NCBI GenBank assembly: GCA_003971905.1
Contig: RSEE01000018.1
Coordinates: 558,001 to 622,000, forward strand
Source: Moniliella sp. 'wahieum'
Lineage: Eukaryota
Reading direction: 5' to 3'
Length of the DNA: 64,000 bases
The notes under the pieces are model-generated. The model had not been told where the DNA came from and searched no databases. It was given only the letters and a program-made list of their open reading frames with translations. Both the position numbers and the translations under genes were made by a program. How positions within the stretch are numbered: position 1 is the stretch's first letter; the number at the start of each line of letters is the position of its first letter. This document shows positions 1 through 63,309 of this stretch, piece after piece.

Positions 1-3000
1 CCATTCCACTTCCCAATGGGGACTCGCTCCGTTCGAAGATCAAGCAGGTTGCTTCGGCCGGTTTGGTGTCACGTCCAACTACCTTGCCGACAGCGACGAG
101 CTGCAGATCAAGATGGCGCAGGGGGCCAAGCCTGGTGAGGGCGGTGAGTTGCCAGGCCACAAGGTGTCGCCATCGATTGCGCGTACGCGTCACTCGACCG
201 CGGGTGTCGGTCTCATTTCCCCCCCTCCTCATCATGACATTTACTCGATTGAGGACTTGAAGCAGCTGATCTACGACCTCAAGTGCGCCAACCCTCGCGC
301 GCGTGAGCGTCAAGCTTGTGTCCGAAGTGGGTGTTGGCATTGTGGCGGCGGGTGTGGCCAAGGCCAAGGCGGACCATGTGCTGGTCTCGGGTCACGACGG
401 TGGTACGGGTGCGTCGCGCTGGACTGGCATCAAGTACGCCGGACTTCCCTGGGAGTTGGGTCTGGCCGAGACGCACCAGACATTGGTGCTCAACGACCTG
501 CGTGGCCGCGTGACGGTGCAGACTGACGGTCAACTTCGCACTGGTCGCGACTTGGCCATCGCTACGCTCCTAGGTGCCGAAGAGTATGGCTTTGCCACCA
601 CGCCCCTCATTGTGATGGGCTGCATCATGATGCGCAAGTGCTTGGGTGTGGACACGCTGGTGCGCACGCTGGGCGGTGCGCGACGAAACGCATTGGCGAT
701 ATTGCCCTTGGCGACACGCTGTTGGACGACAGCAACAACCCTGTGCTTGTCATGTCGGTGGGCGATGTGGAAACGGGGGAGATGTACCAGGTTGCATACA
801 CTCTTGATGGCGAGGAAAGCGCTTTGAGTGCACGCCGGACCACATTCTTTCTTTGGCAGCCGTGGGCGTGGAGCCCACGATGGAGAACAAGACGGTCGAG
901 TTTTACAAGCGCTGCGTGTCGGGCAAAAAGCTGGACCAGGCGGCCGAGCACGCGCCTCGTGTATGATGCACGACCTTGTAACTCTGGCGATGTCCAAGAC
1001 TTGGACCGCGAAGATGAGGTGGACGAGGAGATTGGGTATGTTATTTGGATCTTGTCCCGTGCAGCGAAGGCGTACTGACTCGCATATACCTTTAGCTCTG
1101 AGATGTTACCAAGGAGTTGCTCAGCGGGCACCGTCACCGTGCCCACGCGACGGGCGCATCGCCATTCGACCCTCGCAGTTGCGTCCATGGCAAGGAAACC
1201 GTCCACGTTTCCTTTGACCTTGGCGTCGCCATGCCCGAGCTCGAGAGCGACCACGGTCGGACGCTTCGTCGACGGCCCCTGGCACCCCAGCCATCGAGCC
1301 TGCCGCCGACACGGTGGCCCTTGGCCCGGTGGATGAACTGGTGTTGAGTGAAACTGCCAAGGCACCTGCGCCCGTTCGTGCCACCGAGGAGCCCTTCCTC
1401 CGTGTTGGGGCTCAACTGCAAGGCCGCCTTGCCCTTCTCAAGGAGAAGATCCAGGAGGCAAGTGAGTGCTCCTGCGGTGGCCTGCACAAGGTCTCGCTTG
1501 AGCTGGCGTCCGAAGAGCAGGCACAACTGGTTAACAGCCTCCTCTTCTCTGAGCACCACCACCTTGTTGAGCCCAGCCTCGTTTTGGATGGCGACCGGTT
1601 CGAGGCGACAGCTGAGGACCTTCTCAACCACTCCCACCCTAAGCTCCGTCTTTTCCGCCCTGCCAACCAGGCCGAGTTGGGGCTGGCGCAGGACGATGCG
1701 TACTTTGTTGGTGCCTGGTTGGGCGATGGAGATGCCCACCGGGCCACGCTGGCCGCTTCGGATGCGGAAATGCTGGTGTGGTTGCACAAGTATGTGGAAC
1801 AGCTGAACGCGACGCGTCCCCAGGGCGCGACCGAGCTCAAGGTAGTCAGCCGGAAGGTGACTGCGGTTGGGGACCTGGTCGGATCCAATGCGTTTGCTCG
1901 GGCCGACATGTTTAAGCACACGGTTCTTGCCCAAGACTGGAACCCGCTGGAGGCGAAGCTTACCGACCTAGGCCTTCTCGGCACCAAGGAGCGCCGCATC
2001 CCTATTGAGGCCTTCCCTTCGACTGAGGCCAAGCGGGCCCTGTTAGCTGGTCTGCTCGACACGGACGGATCTTACCTCCGTTTCAGTGGCCAGTACGTCT
2101 TTGCTCAGACCGCCGAAGGCCACATGGGGCTGGTCGAGGATGTGGCGTTGCTGGCCAAGGAACTGGGCATCTGCACCAGTGGTGTGGCCACGGAGCCGGG
2201 GGCTTCTGTGGTGACGCTAAGCGGACCCGGCCTGGCGCAGCTGCAGCCCTACTTGCTGTACGAGCGGAAGCGCATGCCTGCGGTGGCGAGCGACATGGAG
2301 GTGGCGCCGTTTGTGCTGACCAAGTTGACGGGCGAGCGGGAATACCGTGGGGTGGAGGTCTCGGGCGGCCACTTCCAGCTGGAGGATGGCTTGGTGGCGC
2401 ATAACTGCCACCTCAACACGTGCCCCGTTGGCATTGCCACTCAAGACCCCGAGTTGCGAGAGAAGTTTGCCGGCCAGCCCGAGCATGTGATCAACTTCTT
2501 CTACTACCTTGCCGAGGAGCTGCGTGGGATCATGGCCAAGCTGGGGATGCGTACCATCAACGAGATGGTCGGTCGCTCGGAGCTGCTCAAGGCTGACTAT
2601 ACTGGACGCAACGTCAAAGCATCCAAGCTGGATCTGAGCGCCATCCTCAAGCCTGCACATGAACTGCGCCCCGGTGCAGCGACGTACAAGGTGCGTCAGC
2701 AGGACCACCGTCTCTACGTTCGGATGGACAACAAGTTCATCTCGGAAGCCGAGCCGGCTCTGATGGAAGGTCTGCCCGTTCAAGTTGACTGCGAGGTGGT
2801 CAACACGGACCGCGCGCTGGGTGCCACCTTGTCGTACCGTGTGTCCAAGTTGTACGGCGAGGAAGGTTTGGCACGAGACACGATCCACATCAATGCCAAG
2901 GGTTCGGCTGGCCAATCGTGTGGTGCATTCCTTGCCCCCGGTATCACGCTCGAGCTCGAGGGCGACGCGAACGACTATGTCGGAAAGGGCATGTCGGGTG

Positions 3001-5289
3001 GCCGTCTGATCATCTACCCGCCCAAGAACTCGGCGTTCAAGGCAGAGGAGAACATTTTGATTGGCAACACGTGCTTGTACGGCGCGACGACAGGTAATGC
3101 CTACTTCCGTGGCATTGCGGCCGAGCGCTTTGCGGTGCGCAACTCGGGCGCGCATGCGGTGGTGGAAGGTGTGGGAGACCACGGGTGCGAGTACATGACG
3201 GGTGGCCGGGTCGTGGTGCTGGGCAGCACTGGCCGCAACTTTGCCGCCGGGATGAGTGGTGGTTTGCGTATGTGCTGGACATGAACCGCGACTTCTACTC
3301 GCGGTGCAACACGGAGATGGTGGAGCTGGGTCCGGTCAAGGAGCCTCACGAGATTGCCGAGCTGCGCAACCTGATTGAGAACCACCGTCACTACACGGGC
3401 TCGACGGTTGCCGAACATGTGATTCGCGACTTCCACCATCTTTTGCCTCGCTTTGTGCGCGTGATGCCATACGACTATAAGCGTGTGCTTGAGGAGGAGG
3501 CAGCCAAGGCGGCGGCCGAGAAGAAGCGCTCGAGCCATGTGGACTTGCTCGGAACCCTGTCGCGGCACAGCTCCCAGGTCAGCCTGTTGGAGGAAGAGCA
3601 GCAAGAGCAGGAGAAGGCGGCCGCCGCCAAGGCTGAGCCGGCCGAGGTGGACATTGAAGATGCGCTGCTGGATGCCGAGAAGGCCAAGACGGCGCTGGCC
3701 AAGCTGGACAAGTTGCGTGGATTCAAAAAGTACCGTCGTCGTGCGGAAAAGTACCGTCAGCCCAACGTGCGCGCCAAGGACTTTAAGGAACTGTCCAACC
3801 GCCTGACCGATGCCGAGCTCAAGGTGCAGACTGCTCGCTGCATGGACTGTGGTGTGCCCTTCTGCCAGTCGGACACGGGCTGCCCGATCAGCAATGTGAT
3901 CCCCAAGTGGAACGACTTGGTGTTCAACGGGCGCTGGGAAGAAGCCTACTGGAAGCTCATGTCTACCAACAACTTCCCCGAGTTTACCGGCCGCGTGTGC
4001 CCCGCGCCTTGCGAAGGCGCGTGTGTGCTGGGCATCATTGAGTCGCCGGTGGGCATCAAGACGGTGGAGCGGGCGATTATTGACAAGGCGTTTGAGCTGG
4101 GCCTGGTCAAGCCCCAGCCGCCGGTGCACCGGACGGGCAAGACTGTGGCCATTGTGGGTTCGGGTCCGGCCGGGATGGCGTGTGCGGACCAGCTGAACAA
4201 GGCGGGTCACTCGGTCACGGTCTTTGAACGCGCTGATCGTCCGTTTGGTTTGGCCATGTACGGTATTCCCAACATGAAGCTGGACAAGGGGGTGGTCATG
4301 CGTCGTGCCGAGCTGCTGCAAGCCGAGGGCGTGGACATCCAATGTGGCGTGGAGGTGGGACGGGACGTGGATGCGGCCGAGCTCAAGGAACAGTTTGACG
4401 AGCTGGTCTTTGCCACTGGCGCCACCTGGCCGAGGGACCTGCGTGTGGACGGACGCGATGCCAACGGGGTTCTGTTTGCGATGGACTTTTTGGGCGCCAA
4501 CACCAAGTCGCTGTTGGATTCGGGCTGCAGGACGGAAACTTCTACAATGCCAAGGGCAAGAACGTGATTGTCATTGGCGGTGGCGACACGGGCAATGACT
4601 GCATTGGTACCTCGGTTCGGCACGGCGCCGCATCGGTGGTCAACTTTGAGTTGTGCCCCAGCCGCCCGCGTCGCGCGCGCGCGACAACCCTTGGCCTCAG
4701 TGGCCCCGCATCTTCCGCACTGACTATGGTCACACTGAGGTGACGGACCACTATGGTCAAGACCCGCGCACTACCAAATCTCGACGACCAAGTTTGAAAA
4801 GGACGAGGAGAACAATCTCGTTGCCGTGCACACGGTGGAGGTCGCCTGGGAGAAGGACGCGAGCGGAAAGTGGCAGATGAACAAGGTGCCCGGTACGGAG
4901 AAGCGGTGGCCGTGTGAGTTGTGCCTCTTGGCACTGGGTTTCCTCGGCCCAGAGAACGAGGCGATCAAGTCGTTGGAGCTCAAGCAGGATGCTCGCTCCA
5001 ACATCTTGGCCGCCGACTCGAAGGGCGCCACTCCCTTCCGCCTCGGTGCCGGGCGTGTGGGCGTGTGGCGACGCTCGTCGCGGCCAATCGCTGGTGTGTG
5101 GGGCCATCCACGAAGGTCGGGCATGCGCGCAGGCCATTGACGAGCAGTTGCGTGGTACCAGCCGCCTTCCCTGGGCCGGCTCCATCCCCAAGCGCACTTA
5201 CCCTTGGACGAGCAAGGAGGTGGAGTTGCTCCAGCGGCATAAGCGCCCCACACCGCACTACAGATGAGGCCCCTACTCTGTATGATTGA
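1..5289 (+). CDS. GLT1: NADH-dependent glutamate synthase (fused large and small subunit; 5' end lies outside the window), interrupted by an intein; several apparent frameshift errors
   Basis: Motifs: [157 protein letters not shown]. The stop is at 5267 or 5289 depending on the terminal frameshift. Confidence 0.97.
639..2405 (+). mobile_element. Full-length intein with LAGLIDADG homing endonuclease, inserted in GLT1
   Basis: The insertion splits the conserved [13 protein letters not shown]. Block A CLGVDTLV starts at 639. Block [10 protein letters not shown] has TxxH at 832-843, in a shifted frame. LAGLIDADG-like motifs are [11 protein letters not shown] (~1701-1733) and [11 protein letters not shown] (~2040-2072). 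Blocks F/G are [21 protein letters not shown], ending at 2405, followed by the +1 Cys at 2406. Confidence 0.96.
1036..1095 (+). other. Putative 60-nt spliceosomal intron nested inside the intein-coding sequence
   Basis: Donor GTATGT (1036-1041), branch point TACTGAC (1073-1079), acceptor CCTTTAG ending at 1095. The segment is AT-richer than its flanks and contains the TGA (1076-1078) that terminates the upstream intein frame. Confidence 0.8.
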
Positions 5290-5861: not shown

Positions 5862-7070
5862 TCACCGTTGCAGGCCGTACATATTGTCGTACGTCGGAGT
5901 GGTGAGCGCGGGTGCTTGCCCCGCCGTGTGGGGTGCTGATGTTGCTGCCGGGTGCTCGTACGCAGGCTGCGCATAGCCGGCTTCGCTATAGCCAGCTTCG
6001 CTATAGCCGGCGTGCTGGGCCGTAGGATCGGCGTACCCATACCCATACCCAGACTCAGCTGGCGGATAGGCAGCAGCGTCTGTCGCGGGATAAGTAGATG
6101 GGTAGGCGTGCGGGTTGTAAGGGTCGTTCGTGGGCGCGTAGGGGTCGGGGTAGACGCCTGCGTGGGGACCTACCGGCCCAGTGGGGGGGTAGCCAGGCGT
6201 AGCATAGTCATCATGGTGCTCGGCGTGATGCAGCAGCCCTGCCTCTTCGCGTGCATCCGCCTCGTCCTTGACGACCATCCCTTCGTCGGAGAAGGAGGCA
6301 TCGTCGTTCTTGTGCCACAGCCCACGGGAGCGCTGGGAGCGGGAGGACTTGTAGCGGCTCAGGGGCATACCTTGACCATACGCCACCGAATCGCCACCCA
6401 TGCCCAAAGCTGGCGCGTTGGCGATGCCGGTCTGCGTAGTGCCGGCGCGCACGGCACAAGCCAGCACCCAATCCACAGGAGCCAAGCAAAATGATAATCC
6501 AGGCAGCCAATGTGAGCCAGAGAGCACTGCCAAGAGAGGCGTGGATGCCCGATTCGGCATCTTTGAGCCGGTTCTTGAGGATGAGGAAGGTGGCCAGGTC
6601 GAAAATGAAAGCGGCGCACGCCAATGTAGAGGCAATGCCAGTAAGTACGCCGCTCAAGCAGGGCGATAGGCATCCATCGCACATGGAAAAGAGGCCAAAC
6701 ACAGCGGCAGCGGCGGCGATGCCAGCAGTGATGGATGGAGGACCATGGTGTAGGTGAGGCCCTTGACGAGCCCCGAGGAGAGTTTCCCGCTCAAGGCGCC
6801 GGCCTCCGATCCGGCGCCAACTTCTTGGAGGAGGTGGGAGAGGTCAAAGGTGTAGCCGAGCTTGGCAGAGGTGCAGTTGGAGGCAAGGCAGTAACCCAGG
6901 CACCCGAAGGACGCTTCGGTGCCTTTGGGGAGGGAGTGCCCCGAGATCTGAATGGAGGAGAGGTCGACGGTGAGGAAGGCGAGGGACTTGATGATGGGGG
7001 TGCTGCATGTCACCACGGCCATCACGGCGCCGACCAAGACAAGGAAAGAGCCCGGAGCAGCAGGCAGCAT
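5862..7070 (-). CDS. SUR7/PalI (Rim9-like) family multi-pass membrane protein with a Tyr/Pro/Ala-rich C-terminal tail; frameshifted
   Basis: N-terminal hydrophobic helix, the motif FGCLGYC..CTSAKLGY, LTYTMVLHP, further transmembrane segments (AAFIFDLATFLILK; LGSALWLTLAAWIIILLGSC), and a low-complexity tail. Confidence 0.8.
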
Positions 7071-8357
7071 GGCGAGGAGGCGGAGGAGGTGGTGGTGGTG
7101 GGCAGGCGGTGCGTCCGTGCCGCCGCTCCTTGGGGGTAATCAGCAACCAGCGAAGGACAGGAGGGAGCTGCGGAGCGTGCTGACGTCAGCGAGGCAGTGC
7201 AAGGGGCAGCGAGCATCCGTGCATCCGCTCCGCAGCAGCGACGCCCATCGAAATCCAGCGCAGCACGGCGCCAGCCGGCCGCCCGGGGGCGTCTGTCGGC
7301 TCTGCGTATCCACCGGAGCTCCGCCGACGTCATAACGGCAACGCGATGATCGTAATCGATAATCGATGATCGATGTCCGCCAACCAGCCACTGGCAGCGA
7401 TGGGTTGCACGACATGGGTCACACACCGCCCAGGATGCAACCGTGTCTAGTGACTAGTGACTTGCGTGTCCCACACCGCGTGTCCCATGGACGTCGCTCT
7501 TCAGGCTTCCCACAATCAGAGGAGAGCATCAGATCCCGAGGAGACCGAGAGCGGGGCTGCGAAAAAACAAAAACAAAAACACCCGCTCATGCCAGTGATG
7601 AATATTGAATTGCGATGCATGACGGATCTGAATACAATGCATCACACGTCAGAGTCCCTGTGACGCGGTGATGGCCACTAGGTCACTCGAGGCGTTGGAC
7701 GTAGGACATGGGTCATCGATGATCAAGGCATGCTGGCATGTGGCACACTGGGCAGTACTGGGCAGTGATTTTGATGTGATGCGGCCCAGAGGCTTACCTA
7801 AGGTCTTCTGAAATGCGTGATGCATGATGCATGATGCATGATGACTCTATCCCGCCCCACCTGCCGGACGAGTGGGCTGGTGCCGGCGGGGGCACTGCTG
7901 AAGCCTGCCGGGGGAGCGCTGACTGATCGGAGCAGGGCCAGGCACGTCGCGGCACAGATCGGCGCCCCGCTGGCTACAGTGCGCTGGTGGGAGGGGGTGG
8001 CCCGCAGGGCGCCAGTGGAGTGTGGGCGTGGGCGGCGGCGGCTGCGTGGCACAGACGCCGTGCCGGCGCGCGGCATGCAGCTCCCGTGGGACCAGTACCT
8101 GACATGCGCTGGGCGAGCGTTTGGCTGGGCAGCACTGCGCCACGGGGGCAGTGTGGAGCGGCCGCGGCGGACGCAAAGCTTCTGGTGCCCACCGCCTCTG
8201 CAGGCTGCTGTGCGCCGCCGGCGCACCACCCGACGGGCAGCTGTACTCAGTACTCAGTACTCGTCCTCCCTCGCCTTGACTCAGTCCAGCTCCTCCACGC
8301 GCCCCCCGCCCCCACCGCCGCTGCCTGCCCCCGACACGCCCTCGCGCCTCCGCCGCC

Positions 8358-11120: not shown

Positions 11121-14100
11121 TCATTGGACCGATTGGAACCAGCGACTGATCCGACGGGCCATGTGGGCTGCTGAATCTAAGGAAAGCACGGAGAGTGAGG
11201 GGAAGGAGGGAGGCCTGTGCGACTCGTGAAGATAGGGAGAGCGAGACCGAGTGCGTCGGTGCGCTGACCCCACCGTCACTCGATCCTCCCAGTCAGGCAC
11301 GGCGAGCAGGCACGCCGGGTCCCTGGGCAAGGAAAGAAGATCAGACGTCCGTGCTGACCCGTCGTTGGCGAGGACGCCTACGGTGGAAGAGGAGCGGATG
11401 GGAAGGTCGGGTGGGGTTACATTTTCGGCACCTTCAACGGCGGCAACTACCAAGCGCGAAATCTGCGTCTCGGTCGGATCGTTACTTACATCCTCCTTGC
11501 CAATGGTTGGCAGAGCCGTGCGTTCAACAACCGTACTAGTTGCATAGGGAAGGGTATGGTCCGCCCCCCCTATTTCAACTGCGCCCCGTATCGAGCCTTG
11601 CCTGGAATTCGGATCCAGGGCAGATGGCACGAGAAGCGTGCTTCTAACCCGAGGACCGCATGTGGCCAAAACGTCGGTCAACGACGTTGAAAATGAAGAG
11701 GAACGTTGGGGCGCAAGAGTGAGGGCAGATCCCGTACATGACGGACCCGGTGGGCTCCAACCATTGATATCCGACGGCTCCATCACCCTTTCGGGCAGCC
11801 TCATGACTCCCGTTGCGCGTCTGGGTCTCAACGAGGACCGCCGAGCTGGCTTGTTTGCCACGAGTGCAGGGTCCAAACCATCACGAGACTCGTCGTCTCT
11901 TCTTTTGGCGCGCTGAAATGATAGTGAAGTCCCCTCACATTCCTGCGCACCCAAAAACGATGACGCAACAGGAAATGGCACCTCTGTTCGATGCTGAGAG
12001 CGAGGGGGTGAGATGGCTGCGATGGAAGCCCATCGTACCGTGTGAGGAAGGCCAGAGAGTACGATGGCTGGGGATGGAATAGGTACCACAGGTTCGGCGT
12101 TCAGGTCCTTCGTGGCTTTCTGTATATTGGGTTCTTGCTTGGTCCTCACAGCCCCTGTTGGGTCATGGTCGCCGTCGCGAAGGCCCTGATGGCCAGCACT
12201 GCTTCCTTTGGGGGAGGGAGCAACAATGTCAGAATTGGATCGAAGCATACTGGGTTTTGCTACGTCTTGAATAGGGACGGTAGTGTTTGCAGGAGCAAAC
12301 GGAAGAAGGGAAGGCATCGACGCAGCTGTGGTGAGGGGCACAGTTACTGCCTTTGCCTTGGTGAACAATCGTGAGAAGGGTCTGTTGAAGGACTGCGAGA
12401 CGAGAGGTGTAAGCGAGGTTTCCTTCTTACTACTACTCACCTGGTCGTCGGGGAACCGCGTTGTCATCGTGACCGAGCCAGCATGCATGTCTGCGCGTGC
12501 GGCAGTCGCGTCAGTGATGATCTTAGCCTGACGCAGCGCTTCGACAGTACGCTTCCCGTTGGGAAATGTGGTGCCGTGTGCACGCTCGATCATGTTGGCC
12601 AGCATGAGTGAGTACTGCACCACGCGCTGATGCGGTCGTGCCAAGTAATCGTCCAACCGCAACTTTTTGCGTCGGCTTAGCGCCATCATGTTGTCTGCCT
12701 GTGATGGAGACATGGCCAAAGTTGGAGAGCAGGCTGGAGCAAAGGAGTCCCTTATTGTCGACGATGTCGGGCAAGGCGAGGGATCTTGGCTGGTAAAGGT
12801 TATGAGGACACGGGGAAGAAAGGGGGGGCACCAGGGCATCTTTCTTCAGTTGTGGATTCACAGCTAAACTCCAACGATGAGAGCGATCGGTTGGCGAGGG
12901 GCAATCGGCGTCCTTGATTATCAATTGCGGCAAGCGCAGGAAGGAGCGCGGCCGTCCCACTGTCCGCTGCTTTCGGTTAGGCAAGAAGGCCAGAATGTCA
13001 GAAGTGACCGAACCGCGCTTAGAACTGCCAAATATGGGTTCCTCGGAGGCGACGGCGTTGAATGGAGCGCCCACAGGATTGGGGGGGGATTGGACCATCG
13101 CAAAGGCATCGTGCTCTTTCGGTGTTTGGCCCGGCCGAGACAAGCAGCAAAATCGTGCTGGTTTCCCTGACGACCGGACCCATCATCTTCTTCTGTATCC
13201 CCCTCCACCCCCGAAGAAGATGAAGCAGACGAAGATAAGTTGATACCAGTGAAAGTTGATGCAGTAACCACTGCTCGAGCGCACTGCCGCTCGTACCCCC
13301 ACCACAAGTTTGGATCCCGTTCCCTTTCCACCTTGATAATGGACACAAGTGCCGGTTTGTACTGGCAAAATACGTCGTACACCGTCAAGTGGGGGCACTG
13401 AAGAAAGTGGCAATAACGTCAGTATTTCTTGCGAGTGCTGTTTTGTTGGTGTAATGCAGGTAGTAGAGGTAGAAAGAAACATACCAAAATGTCCGCAAAA
13501 AGAGAGGCAATGTCCACAGCAGCGGCTTCCAACTGAGCCATTACGGATGAACCGTGGGCGATTGAACCCCTTTTTTGTGTCGTAGCAATGTCTTCTCGTT
13601 GGAAAGAAGATGAAAATACTGGCGTAGAGGACATTGAGGATGACCGGGACGATAAGGGGCCGTCATGTTCTTCACATTGTACACCAAACGAACATGAGGG
13701 TGAGCTCGGGGGGCATGTGAACGGGGGATGAAGCCGATCAGTGGACGACGGGACGTCCAACCGCTCAAGAACTGTATCCAGTCGATGAAAATGCCACAGG
13801 TCATTCAGGTGCCTCGCAGCCGTCTTGTGGGTAATGAGCAGGTCTTCCAGTGCCCATTGAACCATATCCAACACGCGATGGTTCTCATTGGTTAGCCTGG
13901 AATCGATTCTTTCGGTCATAGTTTCAGCGTTACTGGCAAGACTGCTGTCGACAGGCCAATTGGCATGCATCTTGTGCTGTGATGGAGGTAGAGGGAAGGA
14001 ACTCGCCCGGGTTGCAGTTCTTGTCCACCGACTCGCCCTTCGAAGAGTCCAACACCTTGTCCATCTCATTTGTTGGAGCTCCAAGGCCCCCCTCGCTCCA

Positions 14101-21885: not shown

Positions 21886-22392
21886 TTAGAGCTTGGCCTT
21901 CTGGGCCTTGAGCACAGTGTCCAGCTTGGTTGCCAGCATAATGTTCTGTCCAGAGAAAAGTGTCAGCACTACTCGAGGGAAGAGAAACGGGATGAGGGAA
22001 GCAAGTACGTACACCCTTGACCTTCAACTTTCCGCTCATGAATGCTTTCTGGCCATTGACCTTGCCGTCCGCCATGTCGACAAAGGCTGAGTGGGTCGAG
22101 CAAGCGCACACGCATGGGTTAGTCGTCGCATAAGCATACAACAGGGCAGGGTCCACATACTCTCGTCCGACGTGTTGATCGTCACGTCAGCCTTGCCCTT
22201 CGCCTTGCCCTCGTAGGCCTCGCCGACCTTCTTGAGGTCAATGGTGTAGACCAGCTCCTTGGAGCCTTTCTTGATGTGCAGCTCAAAGACGCCATTGGTC
22301 TTCTTGATGATGTCCTTCTTGTCTTTCTCGCTGGCAGTCTTGAGACCCTCCTGGATCTGGGTGAAGAGTGCTTGGGCTTTGAACTCTGACAT
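21886..22392 (-). CDS. SCP2: Sterol carrier protein 2 (SCP2) domain protein with peroxisomal PTS1 (-AKL); two introns
   Basis: MSEFKAQALFTQIQEGL...YTIDLKKVGEAYEGKAKGKADVTI / FVDMADGKVNGQKAFMSGKLKVKG / NIMLATKLDTVLKAQKAKL*. Confidence 0.92.
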
Positions 22393-41364: not shown

Positions 41365-43154
41365 TTAGGCATCCGTCGTGGCTGCAATCCGGGCCCCCCA
41401 CGCGCCGCGAGGCCTGAAAGCAGGCTTCTTGGCGGGGGCAGCCGCAGCGGCAGGCTCCTCAGCATTCTCCTCCTTTGTCTTGGGGGGCGCAATGGGCAGG
41501 GGCATGTTGCGCAAGTGTTGGGTCGAGTCCGCCATGCGCGTGCCGTTGCGCAAGAACCAGTCTCCGTACCGCCGCCCGGCGCGGTGCTCCGCCACATGGA
41601 CCGTGTCGCCGTCGAGAACAAAGTCGAGGTCGGATGTGTTGATCACCGTGCCCTCCAGCAGGTTGCCTGCTTGCCACTTGAATTGCCGTGTCGCCGCCTT
41701 GGCCACCATCATGCGCTCAATCACCTCTTCTTCATCGGTGTCGCAGAAGTCGGCGAGTTTGTCGATACCAAGCGACTTGTAAAGCTTGACAAAGCTCCGC
41801 ACCGTTCCGTTCGAGAGTTGAGGGATAATGTCCGCCATGAAAAGCTTGAGTTGATGCTGCACCGGGTCAGAAAGCTGGGCGTCATCCCACACCCGCATCG
41901 CCTCCGGGTCATCGTACGCTGGGCCCGAGGTGGCAATGAATTTGGGCGCCGCGTAAAGGAACAGCTCCTCAAATGCCGAGGACTGGGCCTTGTGCATCCT
42001 GGCCAGCTGCTCGCCGTATTTGTCCTTGAGTGCTGACTGCAGGCCCTCGTCAGCCGAGTAGGGCAAAGAACGATGCTGATGGCCAACAACGCGTACATCC
42101 GGTCCGCCGTCTTGGTCAGCTGATCGTGTTGGTACGAACGGGTGAAGGACTTGAGACGCTGCATGAACGTGAGGATGCTAGTGAAGGAACGAATCGCGTC
42201 AGGGTAGCGACCGAGCATCAGGTAGGCAAAGCCGACATAGTAGTAGGTAGACACATGGCACGCCGTCACACGAGTCATCAGCGCATTCTTTGCCCAACTC
42301 AATGTGGTCAAGGGTTTGAGAGCAAGGGTGTAGTCACCCAGCAGGACATGCACGCGCAGCAAACCAATCAAGCTGAAGAAGCCCAAGGTCTTGTAGAGCT
42401 GCGTGCTGCCATACTCACCCGCCACCTCGTCCGGGTCCTCCAGCGGCGGTGGCGGCGAGCTGCTGGACAATGTTGGCCTTCTGGATCAACGAGTAGGACA
42501 TTGAGCACCGAGTAGCTGCTCCACACCCCACCTTCACGGAGAAGCTCAAGATCCTCCTGTTTTACTGGAGAGCTTGTTGCGCCATTGGCTGAAGCTCTGG
42601 TACTGGTAGATAAACTCGTCGATAATGTCCCAGAGCCACTGCGAGGGCAAGTTGATGGGCACGGGGCCGTGCTCATTGTTGAGAACGTAGTTGAAGAAGT
42701 CGCAGTAGTTGTCGTACGAGCTAAAACGGTCTTCCCCGGTCGGTTGCAGACGCGAGTAGACGTGGCGGTACCAAAGTTCCTTGTAGAGGATGAGGAATAC
42801 CTGGTCATTCTCCACCAGCGGGGCGATCACCTCGGCATCGGGCCACTCGGATTGGCATAGTGCTTGGCGGTCAAGCTGTTCCAGCCCCCCTCGTACGGAG
42901 CTGATCTCGGGGAGAGAGTTGTTCTTGACAGGGGTGTAGAAGCCAATGAGGTACTTCTTGACAGGCGACGGCACCTGCTGCAGGGCAGCAGTCTGCTGGG
43001 CAGCCGCAGCCTTCTGGGCTTCGGCGACCAGGGCGGCGTGCGCGGCGTCGTCGGCAAAAGCATCGCCGGCAGCGGCATAGTCGACGCCGAGGTCGACCTC
43101 TCCTTCCAGGAGCTCCTCGTCTTCGACGTCTTGGGTGTAGTACGGGGCGGACAT
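41365..43154 (-). CDS. EIF3L: Translation initiation factor eIF3 subunit L
   Basis: FLILYKELWYRHVYSRL, LPSQWLWDIIDEFIYQYQSF, LYKTLGFFSLIGLLRVHVLLGDY, FEELFLYAAPKFI, RRYGDWFLRN. Confidence 0.95.
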
Positions 43155-43771
43155 GGTGGTGGGGGTCGAGTCGATGTCCGAGCGAGCAGGCGAAGAGCGA
43201 GGGCGGCAGGGGAGGAGCAGCGAAACAGCCGCCGTGCGCCCCGGATTTTTTTCCCCTCTGCTGCCGCCGGCCACACTGCCCGCATGCGGCGGCGGCGCGT
43301 GGGCATGCTTCGGGGGCGGAATGGCGACGACGCCGGCGGAACAGGCGGCGTGGTCCAGGCTGCCCAAAGTGAAAGTTGCAGTCCGGTGTGCAGGCGCGTG
43401 GTGTGTGATGTGCACGGTGTGATGTTGGGGGCAGAAGGCGGGGGCTGGTGGTGACCGGTGACGGTGACCGGTGAGGGTGCCAGTGAAGCTAGTGAGCGTA
43501 AGCGTGACGGGTGGAGTGACGGGTGGCAGGCACGGGAGGCGGGGCACGGGGGCGTGCTCCACTGAGGCGGCGCGGCGGCCCCGAGCAGGTGGGAAGGCGT
43601 GGCGGGCGCTGGGGCGGCGGCCGTGGCACACGCGAGCGACACAGACCCTCGCCCGCCTGGGCCACAGTCTGTCCCCAGCGGCGCGCACGCTGGATTCGGT
43701 CGATTCAGGATTGCCTGTGCGATTGATACGCCGCCCCGCTCCTCTGCCCACCCCCGCTCCTCCCCGCCGCC

Positions 43772-45131
<1,360 letters not shown>

Positions 45132-59113: not shown

Positions 59114-62100
59114 ATGGGTACCCTGACTGATATTGCCCCCTCTTCCGTCTCCGCCTCTTCGGCCACCCAGCCGCCACCTCCACCCATCTTGGGTCGGGGC
59201 GCCCCTGCATTCGTGGGTGCCGACGTGAACACCAATTTTAACGCCGCTGATCGTCAGTCTCCTCCGGCCCGTTTTCCCGTATACACAACCACCACAGTAG
59301 TATGCCAGAACTACGCCACTGGTTTTCACACACAGCTCCCGCGCCCGCGGTCCTTTGCCGCTTGTTTCCGGCACCCGGCCCCACTCAATATGCATTGTTC
59401 TCAACGATGGCAAAGAAGAGTTGCCCCTGGACGAGGAGGGTGCGATACCACATTCTCCAATCCTGGCACCTTCACACTGTTCTTCGGTTGTTAACGGCAT
59501 TTCCCCTCCAATAAATGGGCAACGTCTTCTTCACCGCCTCATTCATCCGCGTCGCTCCCATCAAGACAGTCAAGATCAGGCGCACTTTGACATGGATGAT
59601 GATCCATCCGTATCCCATCACTCGCGCCTTTCTCAGATTCTCGGCAATCGGGTTTCCAAGTCTTTGTTCCATCACCACCAGCGCAACGATTCCAAGATGA
59701 ATGATGACATTCCCGAACCCCACCCGAACAAGGTTGCCGCAGCCTCAGACTCAGTCCTCAGGGTGCAGAATGATCTGCACTTGGCCCAGCCTTGCTCAAC
59801 TGAAGAACATGTAGGTCGAGGTGGTAAAACACGGGTGAACGAAGAAACCAAGAGTCTGGACTCTTCTCCGCTCCCATCTGAGTTTGGAGTACTCCGCCAA
59901 AGGGCCAACGCTGGCAGCGGACTGGTGGATCGTATCCGCTCCCACCACTCCCACAGCAGAAGCGTTGCTGTCTCTACCAATAATACCCCGGTTACTGTGA
60001 ATGGTGATGAGCCCGCGGCCACCAAGGGGCGGGTGTCCTTCTTTCCGCCAAAGTCAAAAACTTCACGTGGGAACAGTAGCGCAACCCCCCCATCCACTGG
60101 TTCATCGCTCTCTCTCAGGCCCTCAAGGCGCAGCACCGGCTCAATCGTGTTGAAAACAGCAGACCAGGACCCAACCATTCCAGTATCCACCTCTTCTAAT
60201 AGAAGTTACATCCCCTTCCCTCGTCCTACCAGTGGCACCATCTCCGGCCGACGGGCTAGCAGCGGGCTGGATACTTTGACTGGGGCAAACACGGAAGACA
60301 CGAGCAATACGGGTCTTCTATCGCCAAGGGAACCCACCATGTCGGAGTTGATCAAGGCCGCGGTTCCCTCAGGGGCGCCAAGCTCAACTGAAGGATTGCC
60401 CTTGGGAAACCGCACACCCAAGTCCAACTGGCTTCTTCGTACCCATCCAGTCCGTCCCCCTTTCAGTCCAGATGGGACTTTTCAGTGTAGTGCAGATATG
60501 GACCCCAACATGCTTCCCCGTCCAGTTGCTGATACATTTTTCCCGGGACCTCCTACGAGGTTCACGAGACGCTTAATCCAAATAAGGTCTTGAGCAGCCT
60601 CAAGGAAGAACCGGATTCCCTTAACTGTTCCTCAAATGACCATTCCGCCCGTGGAGGCTTTCCCGAGCCATTGGTGCATCCTCGTCCTCGGACTGTTGTA
60701 CTGAACGATCTGGCAATTTCTTCTCAACCAGGGCAAGCTGAATTTGAGAAGACGATGAATTCGGCAAAGTTGGCGCAGAGGACCCCTGAGGTTCGAGTAG
60801 CAAGATCCTCCCCCCGACTTCGTCGCTTGGCTGCAGAGCGGTCTCAAGTGCCGTTCCCGCATTCATCGCCTTCCAAACATGTAAGTGAGCAGGGACAAAA
60901 GAAACGGAAAACAATTCAAAAGCAAAGATCTCGCTTCCGTTGTCAGAGGCACACACTCTAGAACCTCATCTGCGCTCCTCAAACTCTCTCAATTCCCAAC
61001 TCTCTTTATTGTCCCCACCCTCACCTCCTCACACACAAGCAAGCAACCAATCTGCATTTCAAACGGCTATCTTATCCCAAGAAGAAGGAGCCAAGAATTT
61101 CTAATGGCAGCATAACCGACAGCAACAGCTCGGTGTGGAAACGGAACCTGGTTCCCAGTTCCGTTCTCATTCCCAGTCCTCTGTCGCACATCTCATCGCT
61201 CGGCAGGACAAGCTACCAACTGGACCGCGTGGTACTAACCATTCAGACACTTCGGATATCATCACGTCTCCTCGATTGCACGGTGCCTCGTCGACAGCCA
61301 ATAATCAACTGCTTCATCCGATTCGGACAAGAATTCGTTGGGATCACTTGCCCAACACACCTCATTCTCGAATCTCAAGAGGTCGATGGGTCGTCATTGG
61401 CATTGGTACGTTTCTCTGCTCTTGCTTATTTCATGGTGCGCTGGCATGCTGATTATGAATCACCTCTTCTCTGTACGAACACATTTTTGATGGATCTTGG
61501 GTGGATTATCGTCTAGATCTGAGTCGGGACCCGATTGGCCGGGGACAATACGGTGAGGTGTACGTAGCGTTGGAGACCCGAACAGGCCAAACGCTGGCAG
61601 TAAAGGTGATCCCGTTCAAGGGAAGAGATCCGGAGAGGCCCACACGCTCTTCAAAGAAGTGGATATGCTCAACGTTTGAGTCATCCGAGCGTAGTAGTGC
61701 GGTATATGGCGCCGTTAAGTCCAAGCATTGCCTGTACATCGTGACCGAGTATGTCGAGAATGGTTCGCTCCTCAAAACGCTCCGTTTTTGGGCAGTTCCA
61801 GGAGCCACTCGTCGCGGCGTACACATTCAAGACTTGATGGTCTGTGCCCTTCATGAAGCTGGGGGTAATCCATTGCGACCTGAAGGCAGCCAACATTTTG
61901 ACCACCAAGTCGGGAAATTAAGATCACGATTTGGTGTCTCCCGATGGTCGGTCAATTCACCTTCTCATGCCAATGATGTCATTGGAACCCTTATTGGATG
62001 GCGCCCGAGATCGTTTCGCTTCAAGGAGCGTCGAAAGCAAGCGACATTTGGTCGCTGGGGTGTCTGGTGATTGAACTGTTGACCGGCCATCCACCTTATG

Positions 62101-63309
62101 CAAAGCTCAACGCGATGGGAGCCCTGTATAAGATCGTAATCGACCCCCATCCTCCCTTGCCCCCTGACATAACGGAGGACCTGAACGAGTTCTTGCTGTC
62201 CTGCTTTGCCAAGCTGCCCACCCAGAGACCTCCCGCCAGAGACCTGTTGAGCCATCGTTGGTTGAATCAGGTATGGACCAACGACCCATCTCTCGCCCAA
62301 AATTCGCTGCCCGCTTTGCACCGCATCTCAGCTGAAGCGCGCCGCTTGTCGCAAGTGTTGACCCCTGGACCCACTGCTACCCCACCCACCCACTGCGGAC
62401 TCTACACACTTCATTACGGCCTCCGTCATCCCTCTCAGATCTCGGCAGGGGTCGTGATTCTGTAACGTCATCGGCTCATGTTCGTCTGAGGCCGAGCAAC
62501 CCTCGCCTGCGCAGACTTTCCGAGGCTTCGACAGGTGGATCTGCTCCGTTACTTCAACACACATTTATCCGCTCCGTCTTCAGTCAAGCGTTGGAGTGCA
62601 GCGTTTGTTTGGAGGCGATTATCCCCATGTCGGATGCATTGCTATGCAGTGCCAAATGTGGACTTGTGTGCCATCGACGTTGTCTTGCCCAGGTTCCACT
62701 GCCTTGCGTACCCATCGCGTCTTTGCGTCAGTATGACACTTCTTATACGCCTCCACTGGATGCCTCGAACAACACCTCATCGTTGGTGGAGCCGGATCGC
62801 GACTTTGCTCCTGCTTCAAGTCATCTACCTCGTCGTCACTCCTGGAAGAAGAGCTACGGCTTCTCCATCTCAGCGAGGCTGCCACACCCAACCCGTCCGT
62901 ATTCCGCAGATGGCCCTCTCACCCTCCCTCCCATTCGTCTTCATCTTTTTCCAAACTGCATCTTCGTGGGCAGCGAAAGCACAAATTGCGCAAGTGGGCT
63001 AGCACCCGTACAACTCATAAGGATGCGTCCGTGACATTTACCCCCTCCCACACGCTTTCTCTGATTCACCCCAACCATCACCTCCACCATGGCGTCTCTT
63101 CTCCCCACACAGGAATGGGGACGCAGCAGGTTGCTGTGCATCGAGTCAGCAGCCCACAACTTGGTTCACAACAGTGCCCCCACCATCGCCACATCCACTT
63201 TCCCCGCAAGATGCACAGCAAGGTGGAGGATCCATCAAGCACGCAGACAGAAAACCTGATGCAAGCCACTGCCTCATCATGTAATTCCTCTTTGTACGCG
63301 CGCCCATGA
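59114..63309 (+). CDS. Cdc15/SepH-like (STE group) Ser/Thr kinase with a long disordered N-terminus and a C1-type zinc finger after the kinase domain; boundaries approximate
   Basis: IGRGQYGEVY..GQTLAVK, IVTEYVENGSL, IHCDLKAANIL, WMAPE, ASDIWSLGCLVIELLTGHPPY, HPPLP, then CSVCLEAI..LLCSAKCGLVCHRRC. Confidence 0.82.

Follow-up and report, generated by a model that had tools for sequence, protein, structure and literature searches.

The GLT1 locus and its intein

The window is a stretch of 64,000 nucleotides (nt) of contig RSEE01000018.1 (positions 558,001 to 622,000 of the forward strand), and translation of the plus strand at its positions 1-5267 gave the C-terminal two thirds of the fungal NADH glutamate synthase GLT1, the gene being cut by the window start. 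This gene carries a full-length LAGLIDADG intein at the usual GLT1 insertion site and, within the intein at 1036-1095, a 60-nt candidate spliceosomal intron, which is the subject of this report. A reading made earlier from the sequence alone (the sequence-only reading) had proposed that a host-type intron is nested in the intein, so that GLT1 would need RNA splicing and then protein splicing. The parts of the locus are as follows.

1-638, plus strand: GLT1 N-extein, with a frame slip near 300; ends ...GCIMMRK directly 5' of the intein Cys
639-2405, plus strand: GLT1 intein, with an assembled length of 1767 nt (60-nt candidate intron included), about 570 codons; from Cys1 (CLGVDTLV...) to ...GLVAHN, then Cys+1 (CHLNTCP)
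639-945, plus strand: N-terminal Hint lobe; block A lies at Cys1, and ...FECTPDH... contains block B; spread over three frames by 1-nt slips near 680 and 826
946-1035, plus strand: 5' portion of the variable linker, up to ...DEVDEEIG; its last two bases, GG, open a split Gly codon; frame uncertain in 962-988
1096-1400, plus strand: second part of the variable linker, with the C of the split Gly codon, Ser-Glu and DVTKELL...; 1-nt slips near 1102 and 1257
1698-1733, plus strand: LAGLIDADG motif 1, aligned to AYLLGLWIGDG of PI-SceI, Asp kept
2040-2075, plus strand: LAGLIDADG motif 2, aligned to FLAGLIDSDGY of PI-SceI, Asp kept
2340-2405, plus strand: C-terminal Hint blocks F and G (translation, alignment to GLT1 inteins, hhalign)
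2406-5267, plus strand: GLT1 C-extein to the stop codon, with slips near 3266, 4523, 4660, 4766 and 5042

Over 112 amino acids (aa), positions 303-638 of the N-extein shared 91-94% identity with GLT1 proteins of fungi. In alignments, the inteins of the GLT1 sequences P0046, P0048 and P0049 had the same MRKC and HNCHLNT flanks as the window intein, and an intein-less relative, P0263, of which the available fragment was 87% identical to the window C-extein, read MMRKCHLNTCP at the site with no insert. The shared flanks and the uninterrupted P0263 sequence therefore identified 639-2405 as an intein at the known GLT1 site, and the empty site of P0263 showed that the intein is absent from some close relatives.

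Alignment with GLT1 inteins revealed that all of the intein splicing residues were present, namely Cys1, the block B TPDH (Thr-x-x-His), the terminal His-Asn and Cys+1. The endonuclease domain was aligned with residues 209-368 of PI-SceI, the VMA1 intein of Saccharomyces cerevisiae (PDB 1DFA, 1LWS, 1VDE), with an E value of 7.6e-6, and both catalytic LAGLIDADG Asp positions were kept. Pfam scores for LAGLIDADG_3 (19.4 bits; cutoff 22.5) and Hom_end (14.3 bits) were both under the cutoffs of those families. PI-SceI resembles the window intein in being a nuclear intein with a homing endonuclease; it differs in its host gene, and the alignment between the two spans the endonuclease domain only. 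To our knowledge, the PI-SceI gene has no intron. The window extein was nearest to the sole named basidiomycete in the comparison set (80.5%, compared with at most 75.6% for the 18 other named sequences), which is a weak hint that the host of this intein is a basidiomycete.

Putative splicing signals at 1036-1095

The candidate intron and its signals were located as follows, and correspond exactly to the GTATGT...TACTGAC...CCTTTAG arrangement of 60 nt that had been described in the sequence-only reading.

1036-1095, plus strand: candidate spliceosomal intron, 60 nt, phase 2
1036-1041, plus strand: putative 5' splice site GTATGT, which fits GTRNGT and is of the yeast type
1073-1079, plus strand: putative branch site TACTGAC, with the branch A at 1078, 17 nt 5' of the 3' splice-site G; includes the TGA at 1076-1078
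1089-1095, plus strand: putative 3' splice site CCTTTAG, a YAG after pyrimidines and the first AG 3' of the branch site

The rarity of this arrangement was assessed in the whole window. The pattern GTATGT-N20-50-TACTGAC-N5-30-YAG had a single match on both strands of the 64 kb (128 kb of strand), compared with an expectation of 0.02, and dinucleotide-shuffled sequences contained at least one match in two of 100 cases. When wider spacing was allowed, the strict motif matched twice, at 1036-1095 and at 13398-13484 on the minus strand; in 200 sequences simulated with a first-order Markov model the mean was 0.015 matches, and two were never reached. A looser pattern, GTRNGT...CTRAC...YAG, was not enriched (14 observed, 12.3 expected), and the weight was therefore placed on the strong consensus only.

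The base composition of the segment also differed from that of its surroundings. Its GC content was 0.47, compared with 0.60 in the flanks, and its T content was 33%, compared with 20% in the remaining intein. The GC content at third codon positions (GC3), calculated in the local frame, was 0.57; the neighbouring coding stretches mostly had values of 0.73-0.79, with two short ones at 0.50 and 0.67. The TGA at 1076-1078 shares its frame with the preceding ...DEVDEEIG, and when the 60 nt were removed this stop codon was lost and the DEVDEEIG frame ran on into a Ser-Glu pair that is common to P0001, the closest relative of the intein (see below).

Six other credible introns were identified in the window. 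They were 67-87 nt in length, began with GTATGT or GTACGT (GTGCGT in one), contained CTGAC or CTAAC and ended in YAG, with GC contents of 0.40-0.57. Excision of each restored an open frame on both sides, which for three of them extended for just 20-35 codons on at least one side. GTATGT also starts the introns at 22087-22160 and 13398-13484, both on the minus strand, and excision of the latter restored 150 open codons on either side. A gene for an SCP2 sterol-carrier protein (21946-22160, minus strand) contained two short introns, one of 74 nt (22087-22160) and one of 67 nt (21946-22012). The Pfam SCP2 profile was matched from position 7 to 65 in the exon before 22087-22160 and from 62 to 88 in the exon after it; the latter exon ends at 22013 and abuts 21946-22012. 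This continuity of the profile confirmed two of the six local introns by homology. The claimed likeness of the candidate to the other introns of the window was thus borne out: the signals are the same, in a local set of 67-87 nt of which two members are confirmed by SCP2. As had also been claimed, no other intron was visible in the 5.3 kb of GLT1, where P0001 was collinear with 1102-5234 except for 1-nt slips and the N-extein was uninterrupted relative to its homologues.

Other types of element were considered for this region. A group I or group II self-splicing intron was ruled out, given the length of only 60 nt and the lack of an Rfam match in 900-1250; the Rfam searches covered the whole window at gathering scores and 900-1250 at E values up to 1, and both came back empty. 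An introner-like element was rejected, there being no second copy within the 64-kb window, where the longest other match was 11 nt. A second intron beginning at the GTATGA near 961 was dismissed as too short and without a branch site.

Relatives of the intein and competing explanations

A search restricted to the intein returned 45 hits, of which one, P0001, was a close relative and the other 44 were bacterial DnaB-type inteins. P0001 is an open reading frame (ORF) of 1393 aa from another assembly; it was 72% identical to the window over 364 C-terminal intein residues and 93.4% identical in the extein over 287 aa, and it contained the Pfam domains GXGXG, Fer4_20, Pyr_redox_2 and Glu_synthase. 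It starts with MLPLAFFYSS, after which tblastn matched it to 1102-1257 (40 of 52 residues identical) and, from 1257, to another frame; from there the match extends to the end of the intein and over the entire C-extein. The two Ser residues and the Glu of P0001 correspond to AGC TCT GAG at 1094-1102 of the window, and the ORF restarts 10 codons 5' of the position equivalent to the acceptor (1096). From this start and the match from 1102 onwards, it follows that the P0001 frame was closed within about 10 codons upstream of the same 3' site. If its Ser codon were AGY, as in the window, the Phe-Phe-Tyr-Ser of P0001 would back-translate to a pyrimidine run followed by YAG.

The ORF that would lie upstream of P0001 was sought with two alignment queries. 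The first gave 10 hits, all of them inteins in other host proteins, and in the second it was not among the 120 matches listed of 7,992, which were mostly GLT1 exteins. Metagenome scans with the C-terminal part of the window intein and with the intein part of P0211 found no relative.

More distant GLT1 inteins, in P0046, P0048 and P0049, were 37-39% identical to the window intein over its C-terminal two thirds. Inteins of this group have in common the N-terminal Hint lobe and the whole region from about 1400 on, and the two parts are joined by a long linker, acidic and rich in Ser, whose length varies. When hhalign was used, P0001 could be aligned to ascomycete GLT1 inteins only from residue 118, with residues 1-117 lacking a detectable match. 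The linker is thus not alignable, and the distant GLT1 inteins are therefore uninformative as to whether the 60 nt are absent from them; a tentative linker motif match in a MAFFT alignment was dropped for the same reason. In an AlphaFold model of P0048, with a mean predicted local distance difference test score (pLDDT) of 75.8, residues 1-97 formed a confident beta lobe of high pLDDT, residues 100-208 were modelled as helices of low to moderate confidence and residues 206-266 as disordered. Judged from these alignments and this model, the candidate intron is in the least constrained part of the intein.

ORF breaks were also observed in other inteins. Three GLT1 ORFs from other assemblies, P0209, P0210 and P0211, consist of the N-extein and the first half of the intein, and all end after ...DC(K/E), the shared end being the first Cys of a CxCGG motif; two of the three have unrelated tails. 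This common end may represent another intron inside the intein, at a different position. In P0204-P0207, P0051 and P0054, which have ascomycete-type GLT1 inteins, the ORF passes through the intein and then, two or three residues beyond the C-terminal Asn (following CH or CHL), changes to unrelated sequence. These breaks fit a putative extein intron lying immediately past the intein site, an arrangement that has been reported for PRP8; according to Table 1 of PMC1508164, in the part of that article available, the PRP8 intron lies just downstream of the intein site. Related inteins were also found in other hosts (P0055, P0060, P0196, P0198-P0203), namely a SEL1/TPR-repeat protein (PF08238), chitin synthases (PF03142, PF01644) and one SNF5-domain protein (PF04855). 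The chitin synthase hosts match the GLT/CHS cluster that is noted in the available sections of PMC5784728.

The reading frame of GLT1 in this assembly was broken repeatedly. Frame changes were located near 300, 680, 826, 960, 1102, 1257, 3266, 4523, 4660, 4766 and 5042, and GC3 by frame suggested an extra slip between about 989 and 1030, for a total of 11-12 in the gene, of which 9 to 11 were single-base deletions. Where a relative was available the slips fell in short homopolymers: relative to P0001, GAGGAT had become GAGAT at 1102 and GGTTCG had become GGTCG at 1257. Other genes were split in the same way among the 75 ORFs of the window that were scanned. Paf67/eIF3L (41368-43916, minus strand) extended over three overlapping ORFs. 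SUR7 was divided between two, as was a protein kinase domain; 6214-7139 (minus strand) and 61459-62462 (plus strand) are examples of split loci. Because unrelated genes across the window are split alike, the frame changes in GLT1 look like assembly errors rather than gene decay.

The slips were unevenly distributed. Five or six of them cluster within about 600 nt (680-1257), spaced roughly 30-155 nt apart, and none fall in the next 2,000 nt (1257-3266); a second cluster is present at 4523-5042. This clustering may reflect locally low coverage. One further observation concerns 962-988, where GC3 is highest in a frame that stays open between 828 and 1214; for a few codons this may be the frame that truly codes.

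The full consensus, its rarity by chance, the likeness to confirmed local introns, the shift in composition, the in-frame stop codon and the restart of the P0001 ORF together make it likely that 1036-1095 is a genuine U2-type GT-AG spliceosomal intron, of phase 2, inside the LAGLIDADG intein of a nuclear GLT1 gene, a call that was made in silico and in which we have good confidence. Expression of GLT1 would then probably need RNA splicing followed by protein splicing. This is what the sequence-only reading had proposed, and its proposal of a host-type intron in the intein was upheld by the same lines of evidence; its arguments from reading frame were weakened by the indel-riddled assembly. In particular, its statement that the TGA closes the intein frame was correct in that the TGA lies in the DEVDEEIG frame; that frame is also broken by the five or six 1-nt indels of 680-1257.

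Several observations weigh against an intron at 1036-1095. An assembly so rich in indels weakens every reading-frame argument around the candidate, and since 60 is a multiple of three, excision leaves the frame unchanged. The frame that is open at 828-1214 on the plus strand, for 129 codons, runs across the candidate intron and both of its flanks; it differs from the frame that P0001 supports downstream. The upstream frame is uncertain, since in 962-988 another frame has a GC3 of 0.67 compared with 0.22. At 60 nt the candidate is the shortest of the set, below the 67-87 nt of the six local introns. Finally, the start of the P0001 ORF could reflect the choice of a gene caller or the edge of a contig and not a stop codon in an intron, and TCN instead of AGY is possible for its Ser codon.

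These observations bear first on the possibility that the 60 nt are translated as 20 linker residues, the TGA or the apparent frame being an assembly error and the splice-like signals a coincidence. The frequency of indels, both in GLT1 and in the split domains elsewhere, the length divisible by three, the frame open across 828-1214 and the great variation in linker length between GLT1 inteins all accord with such a read-through. We nevertheless regard it as improbable, given that the full motif is expected by chance at only 0.02 per window, or about 3e-4 per 1.8-kb intein, that the open frame is not the one confirmed by P0001 downstream of 1096, that the P0001 ORF also breaks at this point and that both composition and GC3 fall across the segment. 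Somewhat less probable again is a real intron with borders or a phase other than 1036/1095, whether through an alternative donor or acceptor or through an indel at an exon edge that masks the junction. This would be allowed by the single base lost 7 nt past the acceptor (GAGAT where P0001 indicates GAGGAT), by the probable further slip within 50 nt 5' of the donor and by the GGG run at the donor. Set against these, no consensus site other than GTATGT and the first AG 3' of the branch site is in reach, and with a 1036/1095 junction the acidic frame upstream matches the frame confirmed downstream with no extra correction.

The least credible of the alternatives, and a very unlikely one, is that the frame changes are real, so that the locus is a decaying GLT1-with-intein pseudogene in which the intron-like segment has no present function. 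The density of frame changes in the N-terminal intein, five or six in 600 nt and none in the next 2,000 nt, could be read in this way. It is opposed by the similar splitting of unrelated genes (Paf67 into three ORFs, SUR7 and the protein kinase into two each), by the nature of the breaks, which are frame shifts and in 9 to 11 of 11-12 cases single-base deletions, by the 93% identity of the extein to the open 1393-aa ORF of P0001 and by the retention of all the catalytic intein and endonuclease residues. A spliceosomal intron bounded by 1036 and 1095 therefore remains the preferred explanation.

The proposed nested splicing and its parallels

If 1036-1095 is an intron, expression of the locus would proceed in two stages. 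Splicing of the pre-mRNA at 1035/1096 would join GG to C, forming a Gly codon, and would remove the segment with the in-frame TGA. Translation of the mRNA would then give a GLT1 precursor with the intein still in place, and the intein would excise itself by means of Cys1, the block B Thr and His, the terminal His-Asn and Cys+1, with ligation of ...MMRK to CHLNTCP.... If the intron were retained, translation would cover the N-extein and the initial third of the intein before it stopped, and neither endonuclease nor active GLT1 would be made; the sequence-only reading had put this forward as a possible on/off control. Since homing copies the whole insert by double-strand-break repair, an active endonuclease would be expected to take the intron along. 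We infer the RNA splicing, the protein-splicing and endonuclease activities and the joint copying of intein and intron, the last of these from the established mechanism of homing.

A broader interpretation is put forward tentatively, as a possibility that we consider somewhat less than evenly balanced. The intron would be an integral, inherited part of the mobile intein, with the host gene enclosing the endonuclease-bearing intein and the intein enclosing the intron; it would be common to at least two species and copied with the intein at each homing event; nuclear inteins may gain introns repeatedly, as P0209-P0211 would illustrate; and splicing efficiency could set the amounts of both endonuclease and GLT1, because unspliced RNA would give neither.

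No description of an intron within an intein emerged from a full-text literature search; most subscription journals and supplements were outside its reach, and the result is not proof of absence. The closest documented parallel, as far as the available text of PMC9548176 extends, is provided by the nuclear group I introns of myxomycetes, in which spliceosomal introns of 47-51 nt lie inside homing-endonuclease genes and their removal in vivo has been shown. The examples named there are I-47 in Didymium squamulosum L2066, I-49 in Diderma alpinum and I-50 and I-51 in Didymium iridis. In both systems a very short host-type intron, in GLT1 a candidate one, lies in the coding sequence of a homing element; it is removed before the endonuclease is made and travels with the element, or in GLT1 would do so. 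The myxomycete carrier, as described in the same portion of that article, is a self-splicing RNA intron in ribosomal DNA, with a His-Cys box endonuclease encoded by a free-standing ORF. In GLT1, by comparison, the carrier is an in-frame intein in a gene of RNA polymerase II, the intron is predicted, and unspliced RNA would also cost the host an enzyme.

The known GLT1 inteins share with the window intein the host gene, the insertion point (MMRK / CHLNTCP) and a full-length LAGLIDADG layout. They differ in their hosts, which are ascomycetes and not, as is probable for the window, a basidiomycete, in a linker without detectable similarity to that of the window and in that they are not described with an intron in the parts of the literature available. 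A survey published in 2018 lists GLT inteins in Pezizomycotina and Saccharomycotina only (PMC5784728, in Table 1 of the available portion).

Introns beside or in place of inteins are described for PRP8 in Eupenicillium and Bathycoccus and for Anaeramoeba paralogues (available sections of PMC10710043 and PMC3749507). These cases resemble GLT1 in that spliceosomal introns and inteins occur in one nuclear gene. They differ in the position of the introns, which according to the same sections occupy the extein, on or close to the insertion site, and whose presence is discussed there as keeping the intein out, whereas the GLT1 candidate is inside the intein. The Cre RPB2 intein of Chlamydomonas reinhardtii is, in the accessible text of PMC1635734, an uninterrupted ORF of 431 codons in a host gene with 20 introns. 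It is likewise a nuclear intein in a eukaryotic gene processed by the spliceosome, and in arrangement it is the opposite of GLT1, where the sole candidate intron seen in 5.3 kb sits inside the intein.

Inteins are treated in the articles consulted as uninterrupted in-frame ORFs, the Chlamydomonas RPB2 intein being an example (PMC1635734, in the text available). If the basidiomycete placement of the host holds, GLT1 inteins extend past the ascomycete groups recorded in the available part of the 2018 survey (PMC5784728). If the intron is genuine, nuclear inteins would be subject to ordinary intron gain, and an intron of this kind would be a marker of the residence time of an intein, or of the transfer of intein and intron together between lineages. 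Surveys of inteins that depend on ORFs or on protein databases could miss or truncate such inteins. The GLT1 locus would then also be a natural case in which RNA splicing gates a homing endonuclease and an enzyme of an essential pathway together.

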